Positions 8,477 to 14,994 of a stretch of 35,576 nucleotides of DNA are shown piece by piece. This DNA comes from an uncultured Gammaproteobacteria bacterium (GTDB taxonomy: Bacteria > Patescibacteriota > Patescibacteriia > UBA9934 > GWF2-40-263), in the NCBI GenBank assembly GCA_964471375.1, contig CAYYFM010000046.1:1-35576 (forward strand). The letters run 5' to 3'. A model generated the notes under the pieces. The model searched no databases, had not been told where the DNA came from, and saw nothing but the letters and a program-made list of their open reading frames with translations. A program made the position numbers and the translations under genes. Each line of letters starts with the position of its first letter. Position 1 is the first letter of the stretch.

Positions 8477-9190
8477 TTAGGACTTTCGTTCCTTCAGCTG
8501 AAGATAGGTCATCACTGAATACATCACAAGGAGAGGAATGACAAAGATCATTCCTACGGAGAAGATCATATCAATCCAGAGGGGAGGAGTTTCACTTACG
8601 ATCGTGTCGAATGGGATTTTTAATACCGTGGCAATGGTTCCAGTAAGTCCAGAGGCAACGATAAAGTATAAGCCCAAAATCAGCAAGGGGATGGAGATGG
8701 TATACCATAAAACCTTGAAAAATCGCCCACGCGATAGTTCACGACTTGCGGTCAGTGCTTCGATTCCACGTTTACCGTCAATAATGACCACTTCTTGGGC
8801 ATAGACAAACCAAACGGTGAAAACGATCCCAGGAATAATGACGAGTAAAAAACCTCCAAGCATAATGAGTCCTTGTATCAGGCTGACCCAAACGATCGGC
8901 ATGAGCAAATCCCAACCTCTTTTCGGTAAGGTAAGAAGGTCGAGAGGTTGATCATGTGTATGGTGGAGCGTGATGATCACGAGGACGTTCAGTATCCATA
9001 GGTAGAGAAGCGTATCGGCAATTTGGATGAAAAAAATTGTGGCGAATTGTACGGATTCATTTGCAATAAAACTCGACAAAATAAATGCGGCGTAGGTGAG
9101 GAGTAGCCAAGAAGCATATCCAACGATTAACGTTGATTGCTTGCGGTACAGCGCAATGGATGAATGTAAAATGTCGACAGGAGATAGCAT
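8477..9190 (-). CDS. Polytopic membrane protein (tandem paralog 2)
   Basis: It has 5-6 hydrophobic helices. The N- and C-terminal patterns resemble those of the upstream gene (LLV...Y..LK end). The start ATG lies 1 nt after the stop of the upstream gene (TGAtATG). Confidence 0.7.
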   Translation of the reverse strand: MLSPVDILHSSIALYRKQSTLIVGYASWLLLTYAAFILSSFIANESVQFATIFFIQIADTLLYLWILNVLVIITLHHTHDQPLDLLTLPKRGWDLLMPIVWVSLIQGLIMLGGFLLVIIPGIVFTVWFVYAQEVVIIDGKRGIEALTASRELSRGRFFKVLWYTISIPLLILGLYFIVASGLTGTIATVLKIPFDTIVSETPPLWIDMIFSVGMIFVIPLLVMYSVMTYLQLKERKS

Positions 9191-9191
9191 A

Positions 9192-10058
9192 TCAACGTTT
9201 TAGGGACTGATAGAGCAGAAGGTCAGCTGTGACGAGAAGTGGGTTTAAGAATACAGCAGCGACGGTGGAAAGAATTGTTGTGAAGATCGTGGAGAGACGT
9301 ACATGGAGATCGATGTTGAGTCCGGTAAAAATTGAGAGGAATGTTTCAAAAATAAATCCAATGATAACCATGGCCATGATTGCCATGAGAATAAAAACAA
9401 TTTTTGGAACAACAAGACGTAATAAAATACTCCAAAAGTGTCCTTTGGTGAGTGTGTTGCTTGCCAAAACAGCAGCTTTCCCTTCAACTCCATCTAATAA
9501 AAGCGCATACGGAGCAAAATAATAATGCACGGACCATCGGAATCCAAGAACGATGGAAATAACGAGCCCAACGACCAGGAGGATGCTTGAAACAATCCCG
9601 AGTGTAGGGATGTTGAATGTGAGATTTATGAGAGTAACGAGAATTCCTGGCCCAAGTCCGATTCCAAGTGCGGCGACAAGGATTCCAAAAATGAAAATCG
9701 TCACAAGAAGTGTTTTGAGGAAATAACGTTTTCCGTCGAGCATTGCTTCGCGTATATTTGAACGTTTATTGGAAAGTTGTGCACGAATAAGACGAGTCAG
9801 AGCAATGAACGTCCAGAGGCCTAAGATGGGTGTAACGACCCATGAGGAAAATGCGTACAAAATAACACCGACCGCTTCGGATGTAGTGAGTGCGGCTGTT
9901 GAGGCAAGTTTTGAGGCGTATGGGTAGAGAAAGAACGCGGTGATTTCAAAAATAGCGGTGATAAGCACCCAGCCGGATACGCTCAGAAGATCAACAAAGT
10001 CGCGTTTGTAATGATCCCAAGACCTGTCGATGAGTTCGCCGATAGAAATGATTGGCAT
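9192..10058 (-). CDS. Polytopic membrane protein (tandem paralog 1)
   Basis: A 288-aa ORF with 6-7 hydrophobic helices and no recognisable catalytic motif. It is tightly coupled to the downstream paralog. Confidence 0.7.
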   Translation of the reverse strand: MPIISIGELIDRSWDHYKRDFVDLLSVSGWVLITAIFEITAFFLYPYASKLASTAALTTSEAVGVILYAFSSWVVTPILGLWTFIALTRLIRAQLSNKRSNIREAMLDGKRYFLKTLLVTIFIFGILVAALGIGLGPGILVTLINLTFNIPTLGIVSSILLVVGLVISIVLGFRWSVHYYFAPYALLLDGVEGKAAVLASNTLTKGHFWSILLRLVVPKIVFILMAIMAMVIIGFIFETFLSIFTGLNIDLHVRLSTIFTTILSTVAAVFLNPLLVTADLLLYQSLKR

Positions 10059-10078: not shown

Positions 10079-10804
10079 TTAAGATTCAAGATTCAAGATT
10101 TTTGAAAGTAACTGTTTTGAGTGAGAAATGGATTCGTCGAGTGAACCAGCTGTGGAGAGAGAATGGATCGTTGTTCCTTTTGACGTGAACAGTTCTTTGA
10201 ACCAATCTGATCGGAAACGTTCGTCGACTTTTCTTAGGAAATCGAGATTTGCGAATACTCCTTTTGATTCTTCATCACGTTGCTTGAGACGTTCGACAGC
10301 GATTTCTGGACTGAGTTTGGTGAGGATGAGGTGATCAGGGGAGTATTGCATGGCAAGCGCATTGCCTGGCAGTTTCAGGAGATCTTCAAGTTGTATTCCT
10401 CCAGTCATGATCGGCTGGTAAACAATCGATGTGCACACCCCTCGGTCCTGGATGACTGTCATTCCGGCTCTTAGAGCCGGAATGATCAAACGGGTGTACA
10501 TGATTTCTCGATCGAGAGCGAAAGCATGGGCGAGAGACTCGCCACTGTACGGATGATCTGTCCGTGACAGTTCGAAGCGGATTGCGGCGCCGATCCATTG
10601 GCGAGTTGGCTCGTAGGTGAAGAAGACATTATGGTCAGATACATCGGTAAAGTTTGGAGGATCTGCGTGTGTTTTTGTCCATTCACGTAGGTCAAAGACT
10701 CGCCGTCCTTTTGCTCGTTCTTGTTCTTTTGCAACATGAAGCAAGGTGGATTTCCCACTGCCGGCGATCCCGTCGATCATGATAAACAGACCGTGTCGAG
10801 GCAT
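10079..10804 (-). CDS. tmk: Thymidylate (dTMP) kinase-family nucleotide kinase
   Basis: P-loop IDGIAGSGKSTLL. It also has a Tmk-like EPT...IR segment, a LID/DRY-like DRGVCTSIVYQ and PDHLILTKLSPEIAVERL. The start is set at ATG 10804 (MPRHGLFIMIDG), because the longer ORF overlaps dut. Confidence 0.8.
   Translation of the reverse strand: MPRHGLFIMIDGIAGSGKSTLLHVAKEQERAKGRRVFDLREWTKTHADPPNFTDVSDHNVFFTYEPTRQWIGAAIRFELSRTDHPYSGESLAHAFALDREIMYTRLIIPALRAGMTVIQDRGVCTSIVYQPIMTGGIQLEDLLKLPGNALAMQYSPDHLILTKLSPEIAVERLKQRDEESKGVFANLDFLRKVDERFRSDWFKELFTSKGTTIHSLSTAGSLDESISHSKQLLSKILNLES
10081..10101. repeat. Heptamer tandem repeat (AAGATTC)x3 at the 3' end of tmk
   Basis: Direct read: aagattc aagattc aagattt. 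It encodes the last codons (KILNLES*) on the minus strand. Confidence 0.8.
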
Positions 10805-10823: not shown

Positions 10824-11255
10824 TTAGCCAGTTGTTCCGTATCCACCGCGTGTTGGGGAGGAAAGGGATTCGACTTCGTTGAAATCTCCTCGGACAATCG
10901 GCACAAACAGTCCTTGGGCAATCCGCTCGCCTTTTTCAACGATATACGGAGCAGAACCTTCGTTTCGGACGGATAATTTTAGCTCATCCTCTGGACCGCA
11001 ATAGTCTTGATCTATGATTCCAATCCCGTTTGCAAGTGTGATCTGTTTTTTTGCGTTAGAAGAGCGTCCGGCAATGATCAGTCCATACCCAGGTGGAGTG
11101 CAAATCACCAGCCCGGTTGAAAAAAACACGGTTTCACCAGGTTGCATGGTTTTCCCTTCGCAAACCGCGATATCAAACGCAATAGCTCCAGCCGTTTTGT
11201 ACTCCGGAAACGCAACGTCCGGACGAATTCGTTTGATATCCACAGGGATGTTCAT
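10824..11255 (-). CDS. dut: dUTP diphosphatase (trimeric dUTPase)
   Basis: dUTPase motifs AGRSSNAKK, GIIDQDYCGPEDE and a C-terminal RGGYGTTG. Confidence 0.92.
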   Translation of the reverse strand: MNIPVDIKRIRPDVAFPEYKTAGAIAFDIAVCEGKTMQPGETVFFSTGLVICTPPGYGLIIAGRSSNAKKQITLANGIGIIDQDYCGPEDELKLSVRNEGSAPYIVEKGERIAQGLFVPIVRGDFNEVESLSSPTRGGYGTTG

Positions 11256-11324: not shown

Positions 11325-12158
11325 ATGACGACATTTGATCGAGTCTATCTCGACACTCTTGGACGTATTTATCGGGAAGGGGAGACTGTTCAAAGCGAAC
11401 GGACAGGTTTTTCGACGCGTGCGATCCCGGGAGTGACGTATGAGCTTCAGCCTGCGGGCGGTTTTCCGCTTTTGACGGTGCGGAAAATGTTTCCGAAGTT
11501 TTTTTGTGCAGAAACGGTTTGGTTTATTGCAGGGCACAAGCATGCAGGATTTTTGCAACAATTCACAAAAGGTTGGGACAGTTTTTTGGAAGAAGATGGG
11601 ACGGTCGAGACCGCCTACGGATACCGTTGGCGTCATCATTTCGGTCGCGATCAGTTAATCGATCTCGTCGAGCATCTACGCGAGGAGCCGTCGAGTCGGC
11701 AAGGGGTCGTGATGATGTGGGATGCTGCTTCGGACGGACTACGAGCTCCAAAAAAGAAAAATGTCCCATGTCCTTACACGTGGACCGTGAACATTATCGG
11801 AGGAAAGCTTAACTTACATATGATCATGCGCTCGAACGACATGGTGCTCGGAAACCCAAACGACACTGCTGACTTCGCTCTCTTGCAAGCCATGCTTGCG
11901 CAAGAGCTCGAAGTCGCGGTCGGAAAACTTACGATTTCAATTTCCCACGCTCATATTTATGAAAATCAGTTCGAGGCGGTCGAGGACATATTGTCACGAG
12001 AAGTGATTCCTCATGTGGAAATAAAATGTCGATTACCCGACCATGCTTTTCGTCGTGCACTTTCTGCTGATGCAACGCTTGTCGAAGACTTGATCCAAAT
12101 GTTTTCGTCTCAATATCAACCAGGACTACCGATGAAAAAAGTACAAATTGCCGTATGA
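11325..12158 (+). CDS. thyA: Thymidylate synthase (ThyA) family enzyme with Asp at the pyrimidine-specificity position
   Basis: It aligns without gaps to E. coli ThyA through the core: ERTG, FPLLTVRK, AETVWF, YGYRWR, DQL, PSSRQ, VPCP (catalytic Cys149), RSND, SHAHIY and the C-terminal KKVQIAV. The residue matching Asn177 is Asp180 (GNPNDTADFALL, codon 11862-11864). Confidence 0.85.
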   Translation: MTTFDRVYLDTLGRIYREGETVQSERTGFSTRAIPGVTYELQPAGGFPLLTVRKMFPKFFCAETVWFIAGHKHAGFLQQFTKGWDSFLEEDGTVETAYGYRWRHHFGRDQLIDLVEHLREEPSSRQGVVMMWDAASDGLRAPKKKNVPCPYTWTVNIIGGKLNLHMIMRSNDMVLGNPNDTADFALLQAMLAQELEVAVGKLTISISHAHIYENQFEAVEDILSREVIPHVEIKCRLPDHAFRRALSADATLVEDLIQMFSSQYQPGLPMKKVQIAV

Positions 12159-12664
12159 TCATTACCCTCATTGCCGCGATCAGTGCGGACGGTTTCATTG
12201 CACAAAGTGCGGATCAGCTGTCTTTTGACTGGACTTCAAAAGAGGACAAGCAGTTTTTTGTTTCTAAAACCAAAGAGATTGGGATCGTGGTCATGGGACG
12301 GAAGACATTCGAGACGTTTGGCAAGCCGCTTAAGGATCGACGTTTGATTGTTTTGACCAGTCAAATATTCCCTGAGCAAGCGCAGCGCGTCGAAGGGCTG
12401 GAGTTTACATCTGAATCCCCACTGGATCTCGTCACTCGCCTCGAAGCAGAAGGCATCACACAACTCGCGGTCTGTGGCGGAGCTACGATCTACTCACAGT
12501 TTCTGAGAGCAGGCCTTGTGAACGAACTGTATCTTACCGTTGAACCAGTCCTCTTCGGACAAGGAATTCTTCTCGCCCCAGATGGTGGTGCGATCCAAAT
12601 GAAATTACTCGATTCAAAGCAACTCGGCGAAAAATCCGTACTTCTTCATTTTTCCATTTTATAG
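12155..12664 (+). CDS. Dihydrofolate reductase-like protein (RibD C-terminal domain family)
   Basis: MIITLIAAISADGFIA...VVMGRKTFETFGKPLKDRRLIVLT...CGGATIYSQFLRAGLVNELYLTVEPVLFGQG. Its ATG overlaps the thyA TGA (ATGA at 12155-12158). Confidence 0.8.
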   Translation: MIITLIAAISADGFIAQSADQLSFDWTSKEDKQFFVSKTKEIGIVVMGRKTFETFGKPLKDRRLIVLTSQIFPEQAQRVEGLEFTSESPLDLVTRLEAEGITQLAVCGGATIYSQFLRAGLVNELYLTVEPVLFGQGILLAPDGGAIQMKLLDSKQLGEKSVLLHFSIL

Positions 12665-12670
12665 ACATGT

Positions 12671-13579
12671 ATGCCCGATTATCCTTACATGCCAACAGAC
12701 AGATCTCTCAAATACGTCTCACATGATGATGTATTTATGCTTGCCGCAGCCAAAGCTCGCACGGAGCAGTCGGGAGATACACTTTATCCGGTCGGAATCG
12801 CCCTTGTACGAGATGGGGAAGTGCTTGTGACAGCAGGGAACGGATTTAGTCGTGGAGCAGGAACCGTCCACATCTGTCCACGAGTTGTTTTAGATTGTCC
12901 GTCTGGGACAGGTTATGACTTGTGCACCCTCCACGATGCTCCGGGACACGCAGAGCAGATGGCGGTCAAAACGGCTGTTGAGCAGGGAATAGACCTTAGA
13001 GGAGCTGACGCGTACCTGTTCGGCCACTGGTGGGCTTGTGAGCCGTGTTGGACGGCGCTCATTGACGCAGGAATCCGTGATTTGTATGTGACGGACGATG
13101 CGCACGATCGATTTAGTCGCGAAAAGGTGTATGCAGAGACTCTGAAACCATCTGTACAATCATCGTACATTTCTGGTCCGATGACGAATATGCCAGAAGA
13201 TCAGCACATCCCCATGCGACAGCTGTATGAGTCGCTCGCAGACGCCTGCTTAGAAATCGGAATCAAACCGTACGTTCCGCATATGCACTGCGATCCTCGG
13301 AGTAACGATTGTCGAACGTCAGAAGAAGTGTGGCGTATTGACGTCGAACAGGTCCGTGCCGCAGATGTGCTCGTTGCGGATGTGACACACACTTCGCTCG
13401 GCGTCGGTGGCGAACTCGCTTATGCGCACATGGCAAATAAACCGATCGTGCTACTCTCACAAAAAAACACCCCTGTCTCCCGCTTTGTCCGCGGAAATCC
13501 AGCCGTGGCGTATCATATTGAATACGACGATCACGCATCAGCCTGTCGAATGTTGAAAAACGTTTTAAAACAATTATAG
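12671..13579 (+). CDS. Fusion protein: dCMP/cytidylate deaminase domain plus DNPH1/Rcl-like 2'-deoxynucleoside 5'-phosphate N-hydrolase domain
   Basis: The N-terminal half carries the zinc motifs HAEQMAV and CEPCWTALIDAGIRDLYV, which are dCMP-deaminase type. The C-terminal half (from about 13160) reads SYISGP...RIDVEQVRAADVLVADVTHTSLGVGGELAYAHMANKPIVLL...SRFVRG. This closely parallels Rcl/DNPH1 (VYFCGS...ADVVVAEVTQPSLGVGYELGRA..GKPILCLF...SAMIRG). Confidence 0.8.
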   Translation: MPDYPYMPTDRSLKYVSHDDVFMLAAAKARTEQSGDTLYPVGIALVRDGEVLVTAGNGFSRGAGTVHICPRVVLDCPSGTGYDLCTLHDAPGHAEQMAVKTAVEQGIDLRGADAYLFGHWWACEPCWTALIDAGIRDLYVTDDAHDRFSREKVYAETLKPSVQSSYISGPMTNMPEDQHIPMRQLYESLADACLEIGIKPYVPHMHCDPRSNDCRTSEEVWRIDVEQVRAADVLVADVTHTSLGVGGELAYAHMANKPIVLLSQKNTPVSRFVRGNPAVAYHIEYDDHASACRMLKNVLKQL

Positions 13580-13590
13580 ACACATTTTCT

Positions 13591-14355
13591 ATGTCTGAGC
13601 ACGAATCTTCTTCTTGTGCGTCATGTGGATACCCGTCGCATGCGGGGCATCAGGCTTCTTGTTCTGGGTCGATAAAAAAATCAAAGGCAGTAGGAGTAAC
13701 AGGAAAGCTACGAGCTCTGATGTTGGGAGGTCTACTGGCGGTTGGCGCAATGGCAAAGAACGCGCCAGAACCGAACGCACCAGAACCGGGTGTGAATACC
13801 CCTGTACATCATCGGGATACGGGTCCAACTGTTTCTCAAAAACAGATTGTTTCTGACGAGATCATCTCGGGTATTCTCGCGCAATCTACAGATGGCGAGT
13901 TTGGAGATGAGTCGGCAGGGATTGAATATCCAGATTATTCATTAGATTTTCGGACGATTCCTATTGGAAAAATGGTTTTGCGAACATTTCCTGATGCAAC
14001 TCGCGTTGACCCAAATAATCCATTTGACATCAATGTAGACAAGTCTCTTCTTGAGACTTTAAAAAAAGATCCAGAGTTGATGAAGGATTTTATGGAAACA
14101 ACACAAGATATTGTCTTTGAAAAGGATGAAAACACGCTACGTGTTTACCTGCCTGATACAGAAGGTTTTGATCTCACCTTAACAATGGCAAATAACGATG
14201 GACGATTTAATATCTATACAGGGGAAGATCGACTTGGTGAGGAAGGGGTCATTGCTTCGACACAAAATCCAGATGGATTTGCTCGAGAGTCTACCCAAGC
14301 GATGTTACGACATTATATTCAGGAAAAATTATTGAGGTATTTGCAAGGAGAATAG
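13591..14355 (+). CDS. Hypothetical single-pass membrane/secreted protein with a Cys/His-rich N-terminus
   Basis: The N-terminus reads CASCGYPSHAGHQASC, followed by a TM helix (LRALMLGGLLAVGAMA), a NAPEPNAPEP linker and a roughly 170-aa acidic ectodomain. Its 3' end overlaps the convergent dcd-like gene by 27 nt. Confidence 0.55.
   Translation: MSEHESSSCASCGYPSHAGHQASCSGSIKKSKAVGVTGKLRALMLGGLLAVGAMAKNAPEPNAPEPGVNTPVHHRDTGPTVSQKQIVSDEIISGILAQSTDGEFGDESAGIEYPDYSLDFRTIPIGKMVLRTFPDATRVDPNNPFDINVDKSLLETLKKDPELMKDFMETTQDIVFEKDENTLRVYLPDTEGFDLTLTMANNDGRFNIYTGEDRLGEEGVIASTQNPDGFARESTQAMLRHYIQEKLLRYLQGE
13756..13794 (+). repeat. PEP-rich linker repeat (15-nt tandem, NAPEP x2), related to the EPEEPKD cassette
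   Basis: gcgccagaaccgaac followed by gcaccagaaccgggt. It lies directly after the TM anchor, the same position as the cassette in the DUF3048 protein. Confidence 0.6.
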
Positions 14356-14994
14356 TTTTTTTATCTCATCCAGTTTTCCTTCTACAAGAGCGCGGCGTTC
14401 TTCGTTTTTATCTAATTTGAACGTTTGTGCTGATGCATCGCTATACTTTGCCGCGTCAACTCCATGTAAATTCGCTTCTTCTGGTGTGAGTGGAGATTTG
14501 AGTTCTTCGAAGATAACTTGGCAAACGCGTTCTCCAGGATACACACGTATCACCTGGTCACCTGCTTCATTTTTCATCGGGAAGATTAAGTTGCCTTTAT
14601 AGCCGACGTCGATGATGCCAGAAAGCGACAGATCAATTCCACGGCGGTTGGTTGACGTTCGCGGGAACAGAATGGCCATGAGATTTGGAGCGTTCATTTC
14701 AATCCGTTCGAGCGATGTTCCGATCACGAATTCGTTTGGGAGCAGTTCAAAAAATTGTCCAGGTTGTAGAATAACTTCGTCAAACTGTTCTGGATGAGCA
14801 GTGACATTGTCGATAGATACTTTGATCGCGCGGCGCCCTTTTTCATCGATCGTCCAATTTCTTGGAATTAAAAACTTATATCCGAGACGCAAATCAATCG
14901 CGTGCGGTTGCATTTGAAACTGATCGAGCTCTGGAGTGAGTCGAATTCCTCCAGACTTGATCTGTGAGACGATGTCTTGGCGAGATAAAATCAT
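14329..14994 (-). CDS. dcd: dCTP deaminase / dUTPase-superfamily protein (Dcd-like)
   Basis: MILSRQDI...GGIRLTP...HAIDLRLG, PRTSTNRRGI and IIDVGYKGNLIFPMKN align to Dcd (GRSSLARLGL, IDPGWSGCIVLEFYN). There is a C-terminal extension. The catalytic Glu position appears to be Pro (see findings). Confidence 0.8.
   Translation of the reverse strand: MILSRQDIVSQIKSGGIRLTPELDQFQMQPHAIDLRLGYKFLIPRNWTIDEKGRRAIKVSIDNVTAHPEQFDEVILQPGQFFELLPNEFVIGTSLERIEMNAPNLMAILFPRTSTNRRGIDLSLSGIIDVGYKGNLIFPMKNEAGDQVIRVYPGERVCQVIFEELKSPLTPEEANLHGVDAAKYSDASAQTFKLDKNEERRALVEGKLDEIKKLFSLQIPQ

Follow-up and report, generated by a model that had tools for sequence, protein, structure and literature searches.

Which nucleotide does the thymidylate synthase (TS)-like protein encoded at this locus methylate? 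The window, by which we mean the whole stretch of DNA analysed, comprises positions 1-35,576 of the forward strand of contig CAYYFM010000046.1 (assembly GCA_964471375.1); its record is labelled uncultured Gammaproteobacteria bacterium, and its source lineage in GTDB is Patescibacteriota; Patescibacteriia; UBA9934; GWF2-40-263. The gene in question, the sole "thymidylate synthase" gene seen in the window, is the following:

11325-12158, forward strand: TS-like gene of 277 amino acids, ATG start to stop codon (Pfam PF00303 Thymidylat_synt, 2.2e-52).

To our knowledge, thymidylate (dTMP) synthesis from deoxyuridylate (dUMP) by ThyA or ThyX is regarded as universal in cells, and the only cases known to us in which a TS homolog methylates deoxycytidylate (dCMP) come from phages that modify their own DNA. 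The protein described here carries Asp at the position that specifies the pyrimidine, where ThyA has Asn. On balance we favour the reading that it would be a dCMP C5-methyltransferase of cells of the candidate phyla radiation (CPR, Patescibacteria), feeding a route to dTMP in which the nucleotide is first methylated and then deaminated. From the residue signature, the placement in the family, the linkage to partner genes and the absence of markers for other products we infer the substrate, the product and the part played by a neighbouring deaminase.

The residue at issue, Asp180, is encoded by GAC at 11862-11864 (forward strand). A MAFFT alignment with E. coli ThyA and T4 gp42 sets it opposite Asn177 of the former and Asp179 of the latter, and HMMER alignments to four solved TS place LGNPNDTADFALL on the LG[VL]... 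segment, ungapped from the RSxD motif to the next helix, with Asp and not a conserved Asn at the specificity position. The gp42 sequence used is 100% identical to PDB 1B49, and the E. coli ThyA sequence reproduces all literature residue numbers. The sequence-only reading had put Asp180 opposite Asn177, and both registers bear this out; its statement that T4 gp42 shows a similar RSND...ND context around Asp179 also holds in the MAFFT alignment (RSND...RND). All homologs with 59% identity or more (120/120) have Asp at position 177 (E. coli numbering), as do all loci taken from GTDB Patescibacteria genomes (80/80), which span Uhr-, Nomura-, Kaiser-, Sacchari-, Peri- and Gracilibacteria, Altimarinota and others. 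This exceeds chance, and Asp180 is, as judged from the alignments, under selection.

Further substitutions co-occur with Asp177. His147 is replaced by Pro, Leu143 by Asn, Trp83 by Phe and Arg127 by Gln or His in 80/80 CPR homologs, and Cys168 by Asn in 78/80. In the query, the catalytic Cys149 lies within the motif N146-V-P-C149-P150 (11760-11774, forward strand), where the invariant Asn146, three residues ahead of the Cys, corresponds to E. coli Leu143 and Pro stands at the place of E. coli His147. An AWD motif accompanies Asp177 in the clade; the query itself has MWD in place of AWN and PSSRQ in place of PDSRR, as had been noticed before, the latter meaning that the second Arg of PxSRR is Gln. 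Canonical ThyA (EC 2.1.1.45; E. coli, L. casei) and the protein are thus about 30% identical and have in common the fold, the catalytic Cys, Arg21, Arg126 and Arg166, the C-terminal tail and the coupling to folA; they differ at Asn177 and at the second-shell residues His147, Leu143, Trp83 and Arg127, which in the protein are Pro, Asn, Phe and Gln. Of the catalytic core, E58, W80, Y94, R126, C146, R166, S167, D169, H207 and Y209 are kept, as is R21, which is aligned in 65/80 CPR homologs; Asp169, Asp172 of the query, is kept in 80/80. The C terminus also follows the TS type:

12135-12155, forward strand: hydrophobic C-terminal tail of TS type (MKKVQIAV region), absent from T4 dCMP hydroxymethylase.

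The KKVQIAV ending had been singled out as TS-like in the sequence-only reading, and the hydrophobic tail is indeed conserved in the clade, with the consensus K-K-[MV]-x-I-A-[LV].

This retention of the tail and of all catalytic TS residues outside the specificity set speaks for the main rival explanation, namely that the protein is an ordinary dUMP thymidylate synthase with a remodelled pocket that accommodates Asp180 or keeps it protonated, or, in a softer form, that it has dual dUMP/dCMP specificity. We judge this explanation to be unlikely, and the specificity residues are a first reason: every Asp at position 177 characterised in the literature we summarise, be it natural or engineered, goes with a preference for cytosine nucleotides, and four further signature residues match dCMP methyltransferases of the type found in phage Xp12, not ThyA. 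Engineered TS variants N177D and N229D (as well as N229D/H199A) resemble the query in having Asp177, a TS scaffold with reductive methylation and, at 147/199, the loss of His, although the query clade carries additional co-varying changes at 83, 127, 143, 168 and 176. The H199A change is reported, in work from 1997, to have improved the N229D dCMP methylase.

Fold searches and generic family matches say little about the substrate. The AlphaFold2 (AF2) model (mean pLDDT 87.4, pTM 0.90) has a TM score of about 0.8 to solved TS including that of E. coli and supports the fold only, and Foldseek against the PDB returns TS structures only (TM 0.7-0.8), which does not discriminate the substrate. PHROGs matches are to generic "thymidylate synthase" families only. 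For the ordinary TS it can be said that the family goes by the name of thymidylate synthase in databases and that the protein just passes TIGR03284 (114.6 against a cutoff of 108.35); against it, the other seven of the eight NCBIfam ThyA equivalogs are far under their cutoffs (67-143 bits against 174-576).

BLASTP scores to the TS of phages Mallos, PaMx74 and Xp12 are 163, 160 and 159 bits (35-39% identity), compared with 108 bits (30%) to E. coli ThyA and 41 bits (24% over 152 residues) to T4 gp42. A profile of 72 Xp12-like sequences without CPR members scores the query at 277.9 bits and a profile of 16 canonical Asn177 sequences at 229.4, a difference of 48.5 bits that is to be read with the unequal depth of the two profiles in mind; the Xp12-like profile is preferred by 80/80 CPR homologs, with margins of 39-81 bits. 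In a neighbour-joining tree of 64 sequences, the Asp177/Pro147/Phe83 clade, made up of CPR and Xp12-like enzymes, is split from the canonical enzymes with bootstrap 76/100; CPR plus Xp12-like enzymes exclude the canonical ones in 83/100 replicates, and CPR enzymes are monophyletic and separate from phage enzymes in 90/100. The sequence-only reading had proposed a family alignment and a tree; in ours, the protein groups with Xp12-type enzymes, apart from Asn177 enzymes. In a search of 1.84 billion cluster representatives, Asp177, Pro147 and Phe83 occur together in about 130 of the nearest 150, while Asn177 representatives nearly all have Trp83 and Arg127 (P0263 has Phe83) and mostly His147. By these comparisons, the TS-like protein belongs to the Asp177 clade and not to the canonical thymidylate synthases, so that profile and tree alike weigh against an ordinary TS.

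The closest characterised counterpart is the Xp12 deoxycytidylate 5-methyltransferase (QNN97214.1), with its PaMx74 and Mallos homologs. They share with the query the ThyA fold, Asp177, Pro147, Asn143, Phe83, the KNVPCP and AWD motifs, Asp169 and His205, together with linkage to a dihydrofolate reductase (DHFR) gene and a dCMP-deaminase-family gene. The query subclade is distinguished from them by Gln/His127, Asn168 and His/Asn176, by a tail ending in I-A-[LV] instead of P-E-V-[IV]-E, by the gene order TS-DHFR-deaminase instead of TS-deaminase-DHFR, by its presence as a cellular chromosomal gene across Patescibacteria instead of in phages, and by its presumed purpose, dTMP supply as opposed to genome-wide 5-methylcytosine (5mC). 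The nearest homologs of the protein, at up to 89% identity, belong to Candidatus Uhrbacteria and other Patescibacteria, and its best relative in IMG/VR has 48% identity, which argues that the CPR subclade is cellular and not a recent phage insertion. For the ordinary TS, this same distribution can be turned into an argument of parsimony: a chromosomal gene conserved throughout a superphylum that needs dTMP would most simply be a housekeeping gene.

Three side observations concern the wider family. Among the IMG/VR viral homologs (L088-L167), seven TS combine Ala at the Asn177 position with Asn147; neither a deaminase nor a DHFR gene lies within 4 kb of them, and their specificity class falls outside the published residue code. 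Four Asp177-clade representatives, P0121 (466 amino acids) and P0143, P0144 and P0177 (424-433 amino acids), have N-terminal extensions of 150-190 residues, possibly fusions with another nucleotide-metabolism domain. In P0135, P0145, P0202, P0227 and P0241, all with Asp177, the otherwise invariant Tyr94 is Thr or Ser, which suggests that this subgroup may be a further reaction variant in the family.

What product would such an enzyme release? The published residue code addresses this question. Positions 177 and 147 best separate TS of cytosine-modified from TS of unmodified phage contigs (MetaGPA, eLife 2021). In an in-vivo liquid chromatography-mass spectrometry assay that used T4 gp1, five of seven Asp-type TS made 5-methyl-dCMP (5mdCMP), with the Xp12 TS as positive control; C is wholly replaced by 5mC in Xp12 and PaMx74 (Yang et al., bioRxiv 2024.12.05.627091). 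Hydroxymethylases are recognised by Asp or Glu three residues before the Cys combined with the lack of a C-terminal tail, and T4 dCMP hydroxymethylase with D145N is inactive (Park et al., IUCrJ 2019). D169N is diagnostic of 5-hydroxy-dCMP synthases of the RB69/DLP3 type, where it occurs with N177D and L143E (NAR 2026). Under this code, which assigns Xp12 likewise, Asp177, Asn143, Asp169 and the tail together make the query a predicted 5mdCMP synthase.

The code also bears on a second rival, which takes the protein for a dCMP hydroxymethylase or for some other enzyme of non-methyl C5 chemistry (a 5-hydroxymethyl-dCMP or 5-hydroxy-dCMP synthase) whose product is handled by the deaminase-DNPH1-like fusion encoded downstream. 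T4 gp42 (PDB 1B5E/6A9A) does have in common with the query the RSND and ND motifs and the Asp that stands at the specificity position; residue 143 is a polar Asn and not Leu, Thr96 lies two residues ahead of Tyr98, and a domain of the downstream protein is nearest to 5-hydroxymethyl-dUMP N-hydrolase and the MilB/BlsM hydrolases. We nonetheless consider this rival highly improbable. The residue three before the Cys, Asn146, is not acidic, unlike Asp145 of T4 gp42, whose change to Asn abolishes activity; the same Asn143 is found in Xp12, a 5mC phage. The conserved C-terminal tail is missing from T4 gp42, which releases tetrahydrofolate (THF) instead of dihydrofolate (DHF), and the coupling to DHFR described below implies DHF production. 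Asp169 is kept, which argues against the 5-hydroxy-dCMP type, and at 41 bits the protein is only weakly similar to T4 gp42.

The genes around the TS-like gene have the local order tmk (-), dut (-), TS-like (+), DHFR (+), deaminase fusion (+), hypothetical ORF (open reading frame), dCTP-deaminase (DCD)-like (-):

10079-10804, reverse strand: thymidylate-kinase-family deoxynucleoside monophosphate (dNMP) kinase gene, tmk (TIGR00041 88.3 against a cutoff of 83.25).

10824-11255, reverse strand: canonical trimeric dUTPase gene, dut, divergent from the TS-like gene (Pfam dUTPase, 1.4e-19).

12155-12664, forward strand: FolA-like DHFR gene, 169 amino acids (Pfam DHFR_1 5.9e-18, RibD_C 2.1e-20).

12671-13579, forward strand: deaminase-DNPH1-like fusion gene (Pfam dCMP_cyt_deam_1 1.6e-9, Nuc_deoxyrib_tr 7.7e-9).

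13591-14355, forward strand: hypothetical ORF of 254 amino acids, between the deaminase fusion and the DCD-like gene.

14329-14994, reverse strand: dCTP-deaminase-family (DCD-like) gene, product without the catalytic Glu (Pro139).

The DHFR start overlaps the stop codon of the TS-like gene in the sequence ATGA (12155-12158), in line with the coupling reported in the sequence-only reading, and the deaminase fusion begins 7 nucleotides past the DHFR gene. A 652-kb contig shows the same gene arrangement at 61% identity. We counted partner genes in the 57 GTDB CPR loci with enough flank, viewing about 10 kb around each hit. DHFR is present in 51/57 and in 44/57 is the next gene after TS; 49/57 have a dCMP-deaminase-family gene no more than 5 kb from the TS gene, 34/57 a DCD-like gene, 32/57 tmk and 22/57 dut. 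CPR lineages other than Uhrbacteria have the deaminase on the reverse strand, followed by TS, DCD-like and DHFR genes in this order. Viral Asp177 relatives are linked in a comparable way, with a deaminase gene within 4 kb in 40/45 and DHFR in 30/45, and in Xp12, PaMx74 and Mallos TS is followed by the deaminase gene (cd) and then by DHFR. Of the dCMP-deaminase genes on modified phage contigs, 70% have a TS gene within 3 kb, against 6% of those on unmodified contigs, and it has been proposed that thymidine is obtained by deaminating 5mC nucleotides, with no need for a TS that depends on dUMP (Yang et al., bioRxiv 2024).

The partners themselves are not of phage type. The DHFR encoded in the window is 33% identical to E. 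coli FolA; CPR DHFR lies nearer to FolA than to phage DHFRs, and CPR folA genes of other metagenome-assembled genomes (MAGs) have been found to complement an E. coli folA deletion; the CPR deaminase is very divergent and barely matches phage cd genes. A wholesale transfer of a phage TS, cd and DHFR module into CPR is rejected in view of the FolA-like DHFR, the divergent deaminase and the 48% identity of the best IMG/VR TS. In the fusion protein, the N-terminal half is a dCMP/cytidine-deaminase domain (HAE...CEPC) and the C-terminal half a DNPH1-like dNMP N-hydrolase domain. The best solved relatives of residues ~160-302 are DNPH1, a 5-hydroxymethyl-dUMP N-hydrolase, followed by BlsM and MilB (CMP/hydroxymethyl-CMP hydrolases), and the motif with the catalytic Glu is kept (SLGVGGELAYA compared with SLGVGYELGRA). 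The fusion brings together two enzymes whose human counterparts, DCTD and DNPH1, act in sequence on 5-hydroxymethyl-deoxycytidine nucleotides.

This neighbourhood would also suit an ordinary TS, as dut, dCMP deaminase, tmk and folA are the genes classically associated with dTMP synthesis: dUMP would be provided by the deaminase encoded nearby and by the dUTPase, DHFR would recycle DHF and Tmk would take dTMP onward. The dUTPase is intact in its IDQDY motif, which retains the catalytic Asp, and its NCBIfam scores lie just under the cutoffs (TIGR00576, 96.4 against 102.55; NF001862, 97.4 against 103). The DCD homolog, in turn, is at odds with an ordinary TS, being unable to deaminate by the known mechanism. 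Its Pro139 stands at the catalytic-Glu position of solved dCTP deaminases ('LIFPMKN' compared with 'ITLELSN' and 'IVLEFYN'), it has Gly at the catalytic-Asp position of dUTPases, and Pro replaces the catalytic Glu in 39/39 CPR DCD homologs adjoining an Asp177 TS. The protein thus probably does not deaminate, and with the Glu missing in 39/39, a supply of dUTP or dUMP by it appears unlikely. As a conjecture, it could be a dCTP diphosphatase giving dCMP, which would fit the pathway proposed here. Kinship with the T4 dCTPase gp56 was considered and rejected, as there is no significant match and the fold family is different. In several CPR lineages the DCD-like gene follows the TS gene and precedes DHFR, all three in one orientation.

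The same genes could be read in yet another way, with 5mdCMP being built into DNA so that C is largely or wholly 5mC as in Xp12, the Glu-less DCD removing dCTP and the deaminase diverting part of the pool to thymidine. Counterparts of the Xp12 module are indeed present in the cluster (Asp177 TS, DHFR, deaminase and dNMP kinase), next to a dCTP-binding-family protein devoid of deaminase chemistry. We give this explanation very little credence, given that the dCTPase activity is conjecture only, that its prior is low for a cellular organism and that literature searches found no report of globally 5mC-substituted CPR DNA.

We return to dCMP methylation for dTMP supply and propose the following mechanism. 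Cys149 would attack C6 of dCMP, while Asp180 would read and protonate the N3/N4 edge of cytosine, as in T4 dCMP hydroxymethylase and the TS N177D mutants. The methylene group of methylene-THF (CH2-THF) would then be transferred and, since the tail closes the active site and the residue three before the Cys is not an acidic, water-activating one, hydride transfer would yield 5mdCMP and DHF (dCMP + CH2-THF -> 5mdCMP + DHF), with the coupled DHFR regenerating THF. The dCMP-deaminase-family fusion (12671-13579) would deaminate 5mdCMP, or a phosphorylated form of it, to a thymidine nucleotide that the adjacent Tmk-family kinase may phosphorylate. Methylation would precede deamination as proposed for Xp12, here in a housekeeping operon found across Patescibacteria. 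The sequence-only reading had named the protein a candidate natural dCMP or dual-specificity methyltransferase producing DHF, and the signature, the absence of hydroxymethylase and hydroxylase markers, the tail and the DHFR coupling support this candidacy; our analysis adds the superphylum-wide cellular CPR clade, the deaminase linkage as in phage 5mC modules and the published phage precedent.

Several points weigh against this mechanism. The enzymes of the CPR subclade differ from the Xp12 type at E. coli positions 127 (Gln/His versus Arg), 168 (Asn versus Ser) and 176 (His/Asn versus Tyr). Tree support is moderate and comes from neighbour-joining only. The canonical dUTPase and the dCMP deaminase could supply dUMP to an ordinary TS, and a second TS (thyX or a canonical thyA) may lie outside the ~10 kb viewed per CPR locus. 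The CPR deaminase and DHFR are not near relatives of their phage counterparts, and the characterised phage deaminase mSCD-B5 acts on triphosphates and not on 5mdCMP. Finally, the mechanism leaves unexplained how 5mdCMP would be excluded from the cellular deoxynucleoside triphosphate pool.

A more far-reaching version, which we offer tentatively and regard as doubtful, holds that Patescibacteria have no dUMP-dependent TS at all and would make all thymidylate via 5-methyl-deoxycytidine nucleotides, with the Glu-less DCD acting as dCTP diphosphatase; in its extreme form, genomic C would be partly or wholly 5mC installed at the nucleotide level as in Xp12. If true, thymidylate made via 5-methyl-deoxycytidine nucleotides, or genomic 5mC of nucleotide-level origin, would be a first for a cellular organism.

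The window is a piece of bacterial chromosome and not a phage; its other genes include those for ThrRS, MiaB, MiaA, GatB, the ribosomal proteins L1, L11, L25 and S2, NusG, GyrB, FtsW and PrmC as well as RF1, QueA and EF-Ts. The listed tmk ORF reaches 10939 from a TTG start and would overlap dut by 116 nucleotides; the true start is probably the Met of MPRHGLFIMIDG, near 10804, since the P-loop directly follows this internal Met (MPRHGLFIMIDGIAGSGKST). Two multi-pass membrane proteins are encoded next to each other beside tmk (8477-10058, reverse strand); their counterparts occupy the same position on the 652-kb contig, where Pfam recognises only one of the two, as UPF0259/DUF7847. The 254-amino-acid product of 13591-14355 has no Pfam match and shows a Cys/His-rich N-terminus followed by a probable membrane segment, and at its position the 652-kb contig holds other genes, with SET and NUDIX domains. 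Many MAGs titled "uncultured Gammaproteobacteria bacterium" (L010, L016, L017, L019, L020, L025 and others) carry the TS locus; with 60-87% identity and Uhrbacteria-type synteny, they look like mislabelled Patescibacteria bins.

In summary, TS-family dCMP methyltransferases with deaminase partners were known from phages, and what is new here is a subclade of cellular enzymes that spans a superphylum, has a residue pattern distinct from theirs and is implied to serve another role. Literature searches found no paper on Asp-type TS, thyX or 5mdCMP metabolism in Patescibacteria, and one CPR paper counts thyA simply as a capacity for dTMP synthesis. Our analysis suggests that CPR bacteria make thymidine by methylation of a cytosine nucleotide and subsequent deamination. 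If true, an entire bacterial superphylum would make dTMP by a route of reversed order, and metabolic reconstructions that score CPR genomes as "thyA present" would change. It would also bear on a common origin of phage 5mC modules and the cellular enzyme, and raise the question of nucleotide-level 5mC in CPR DNA. Methylome sequencing already uses 5mC-selective deaminases from phages, and the clade would be a large and diverse natural source of dCMP methyltransferases and partner deaminases.

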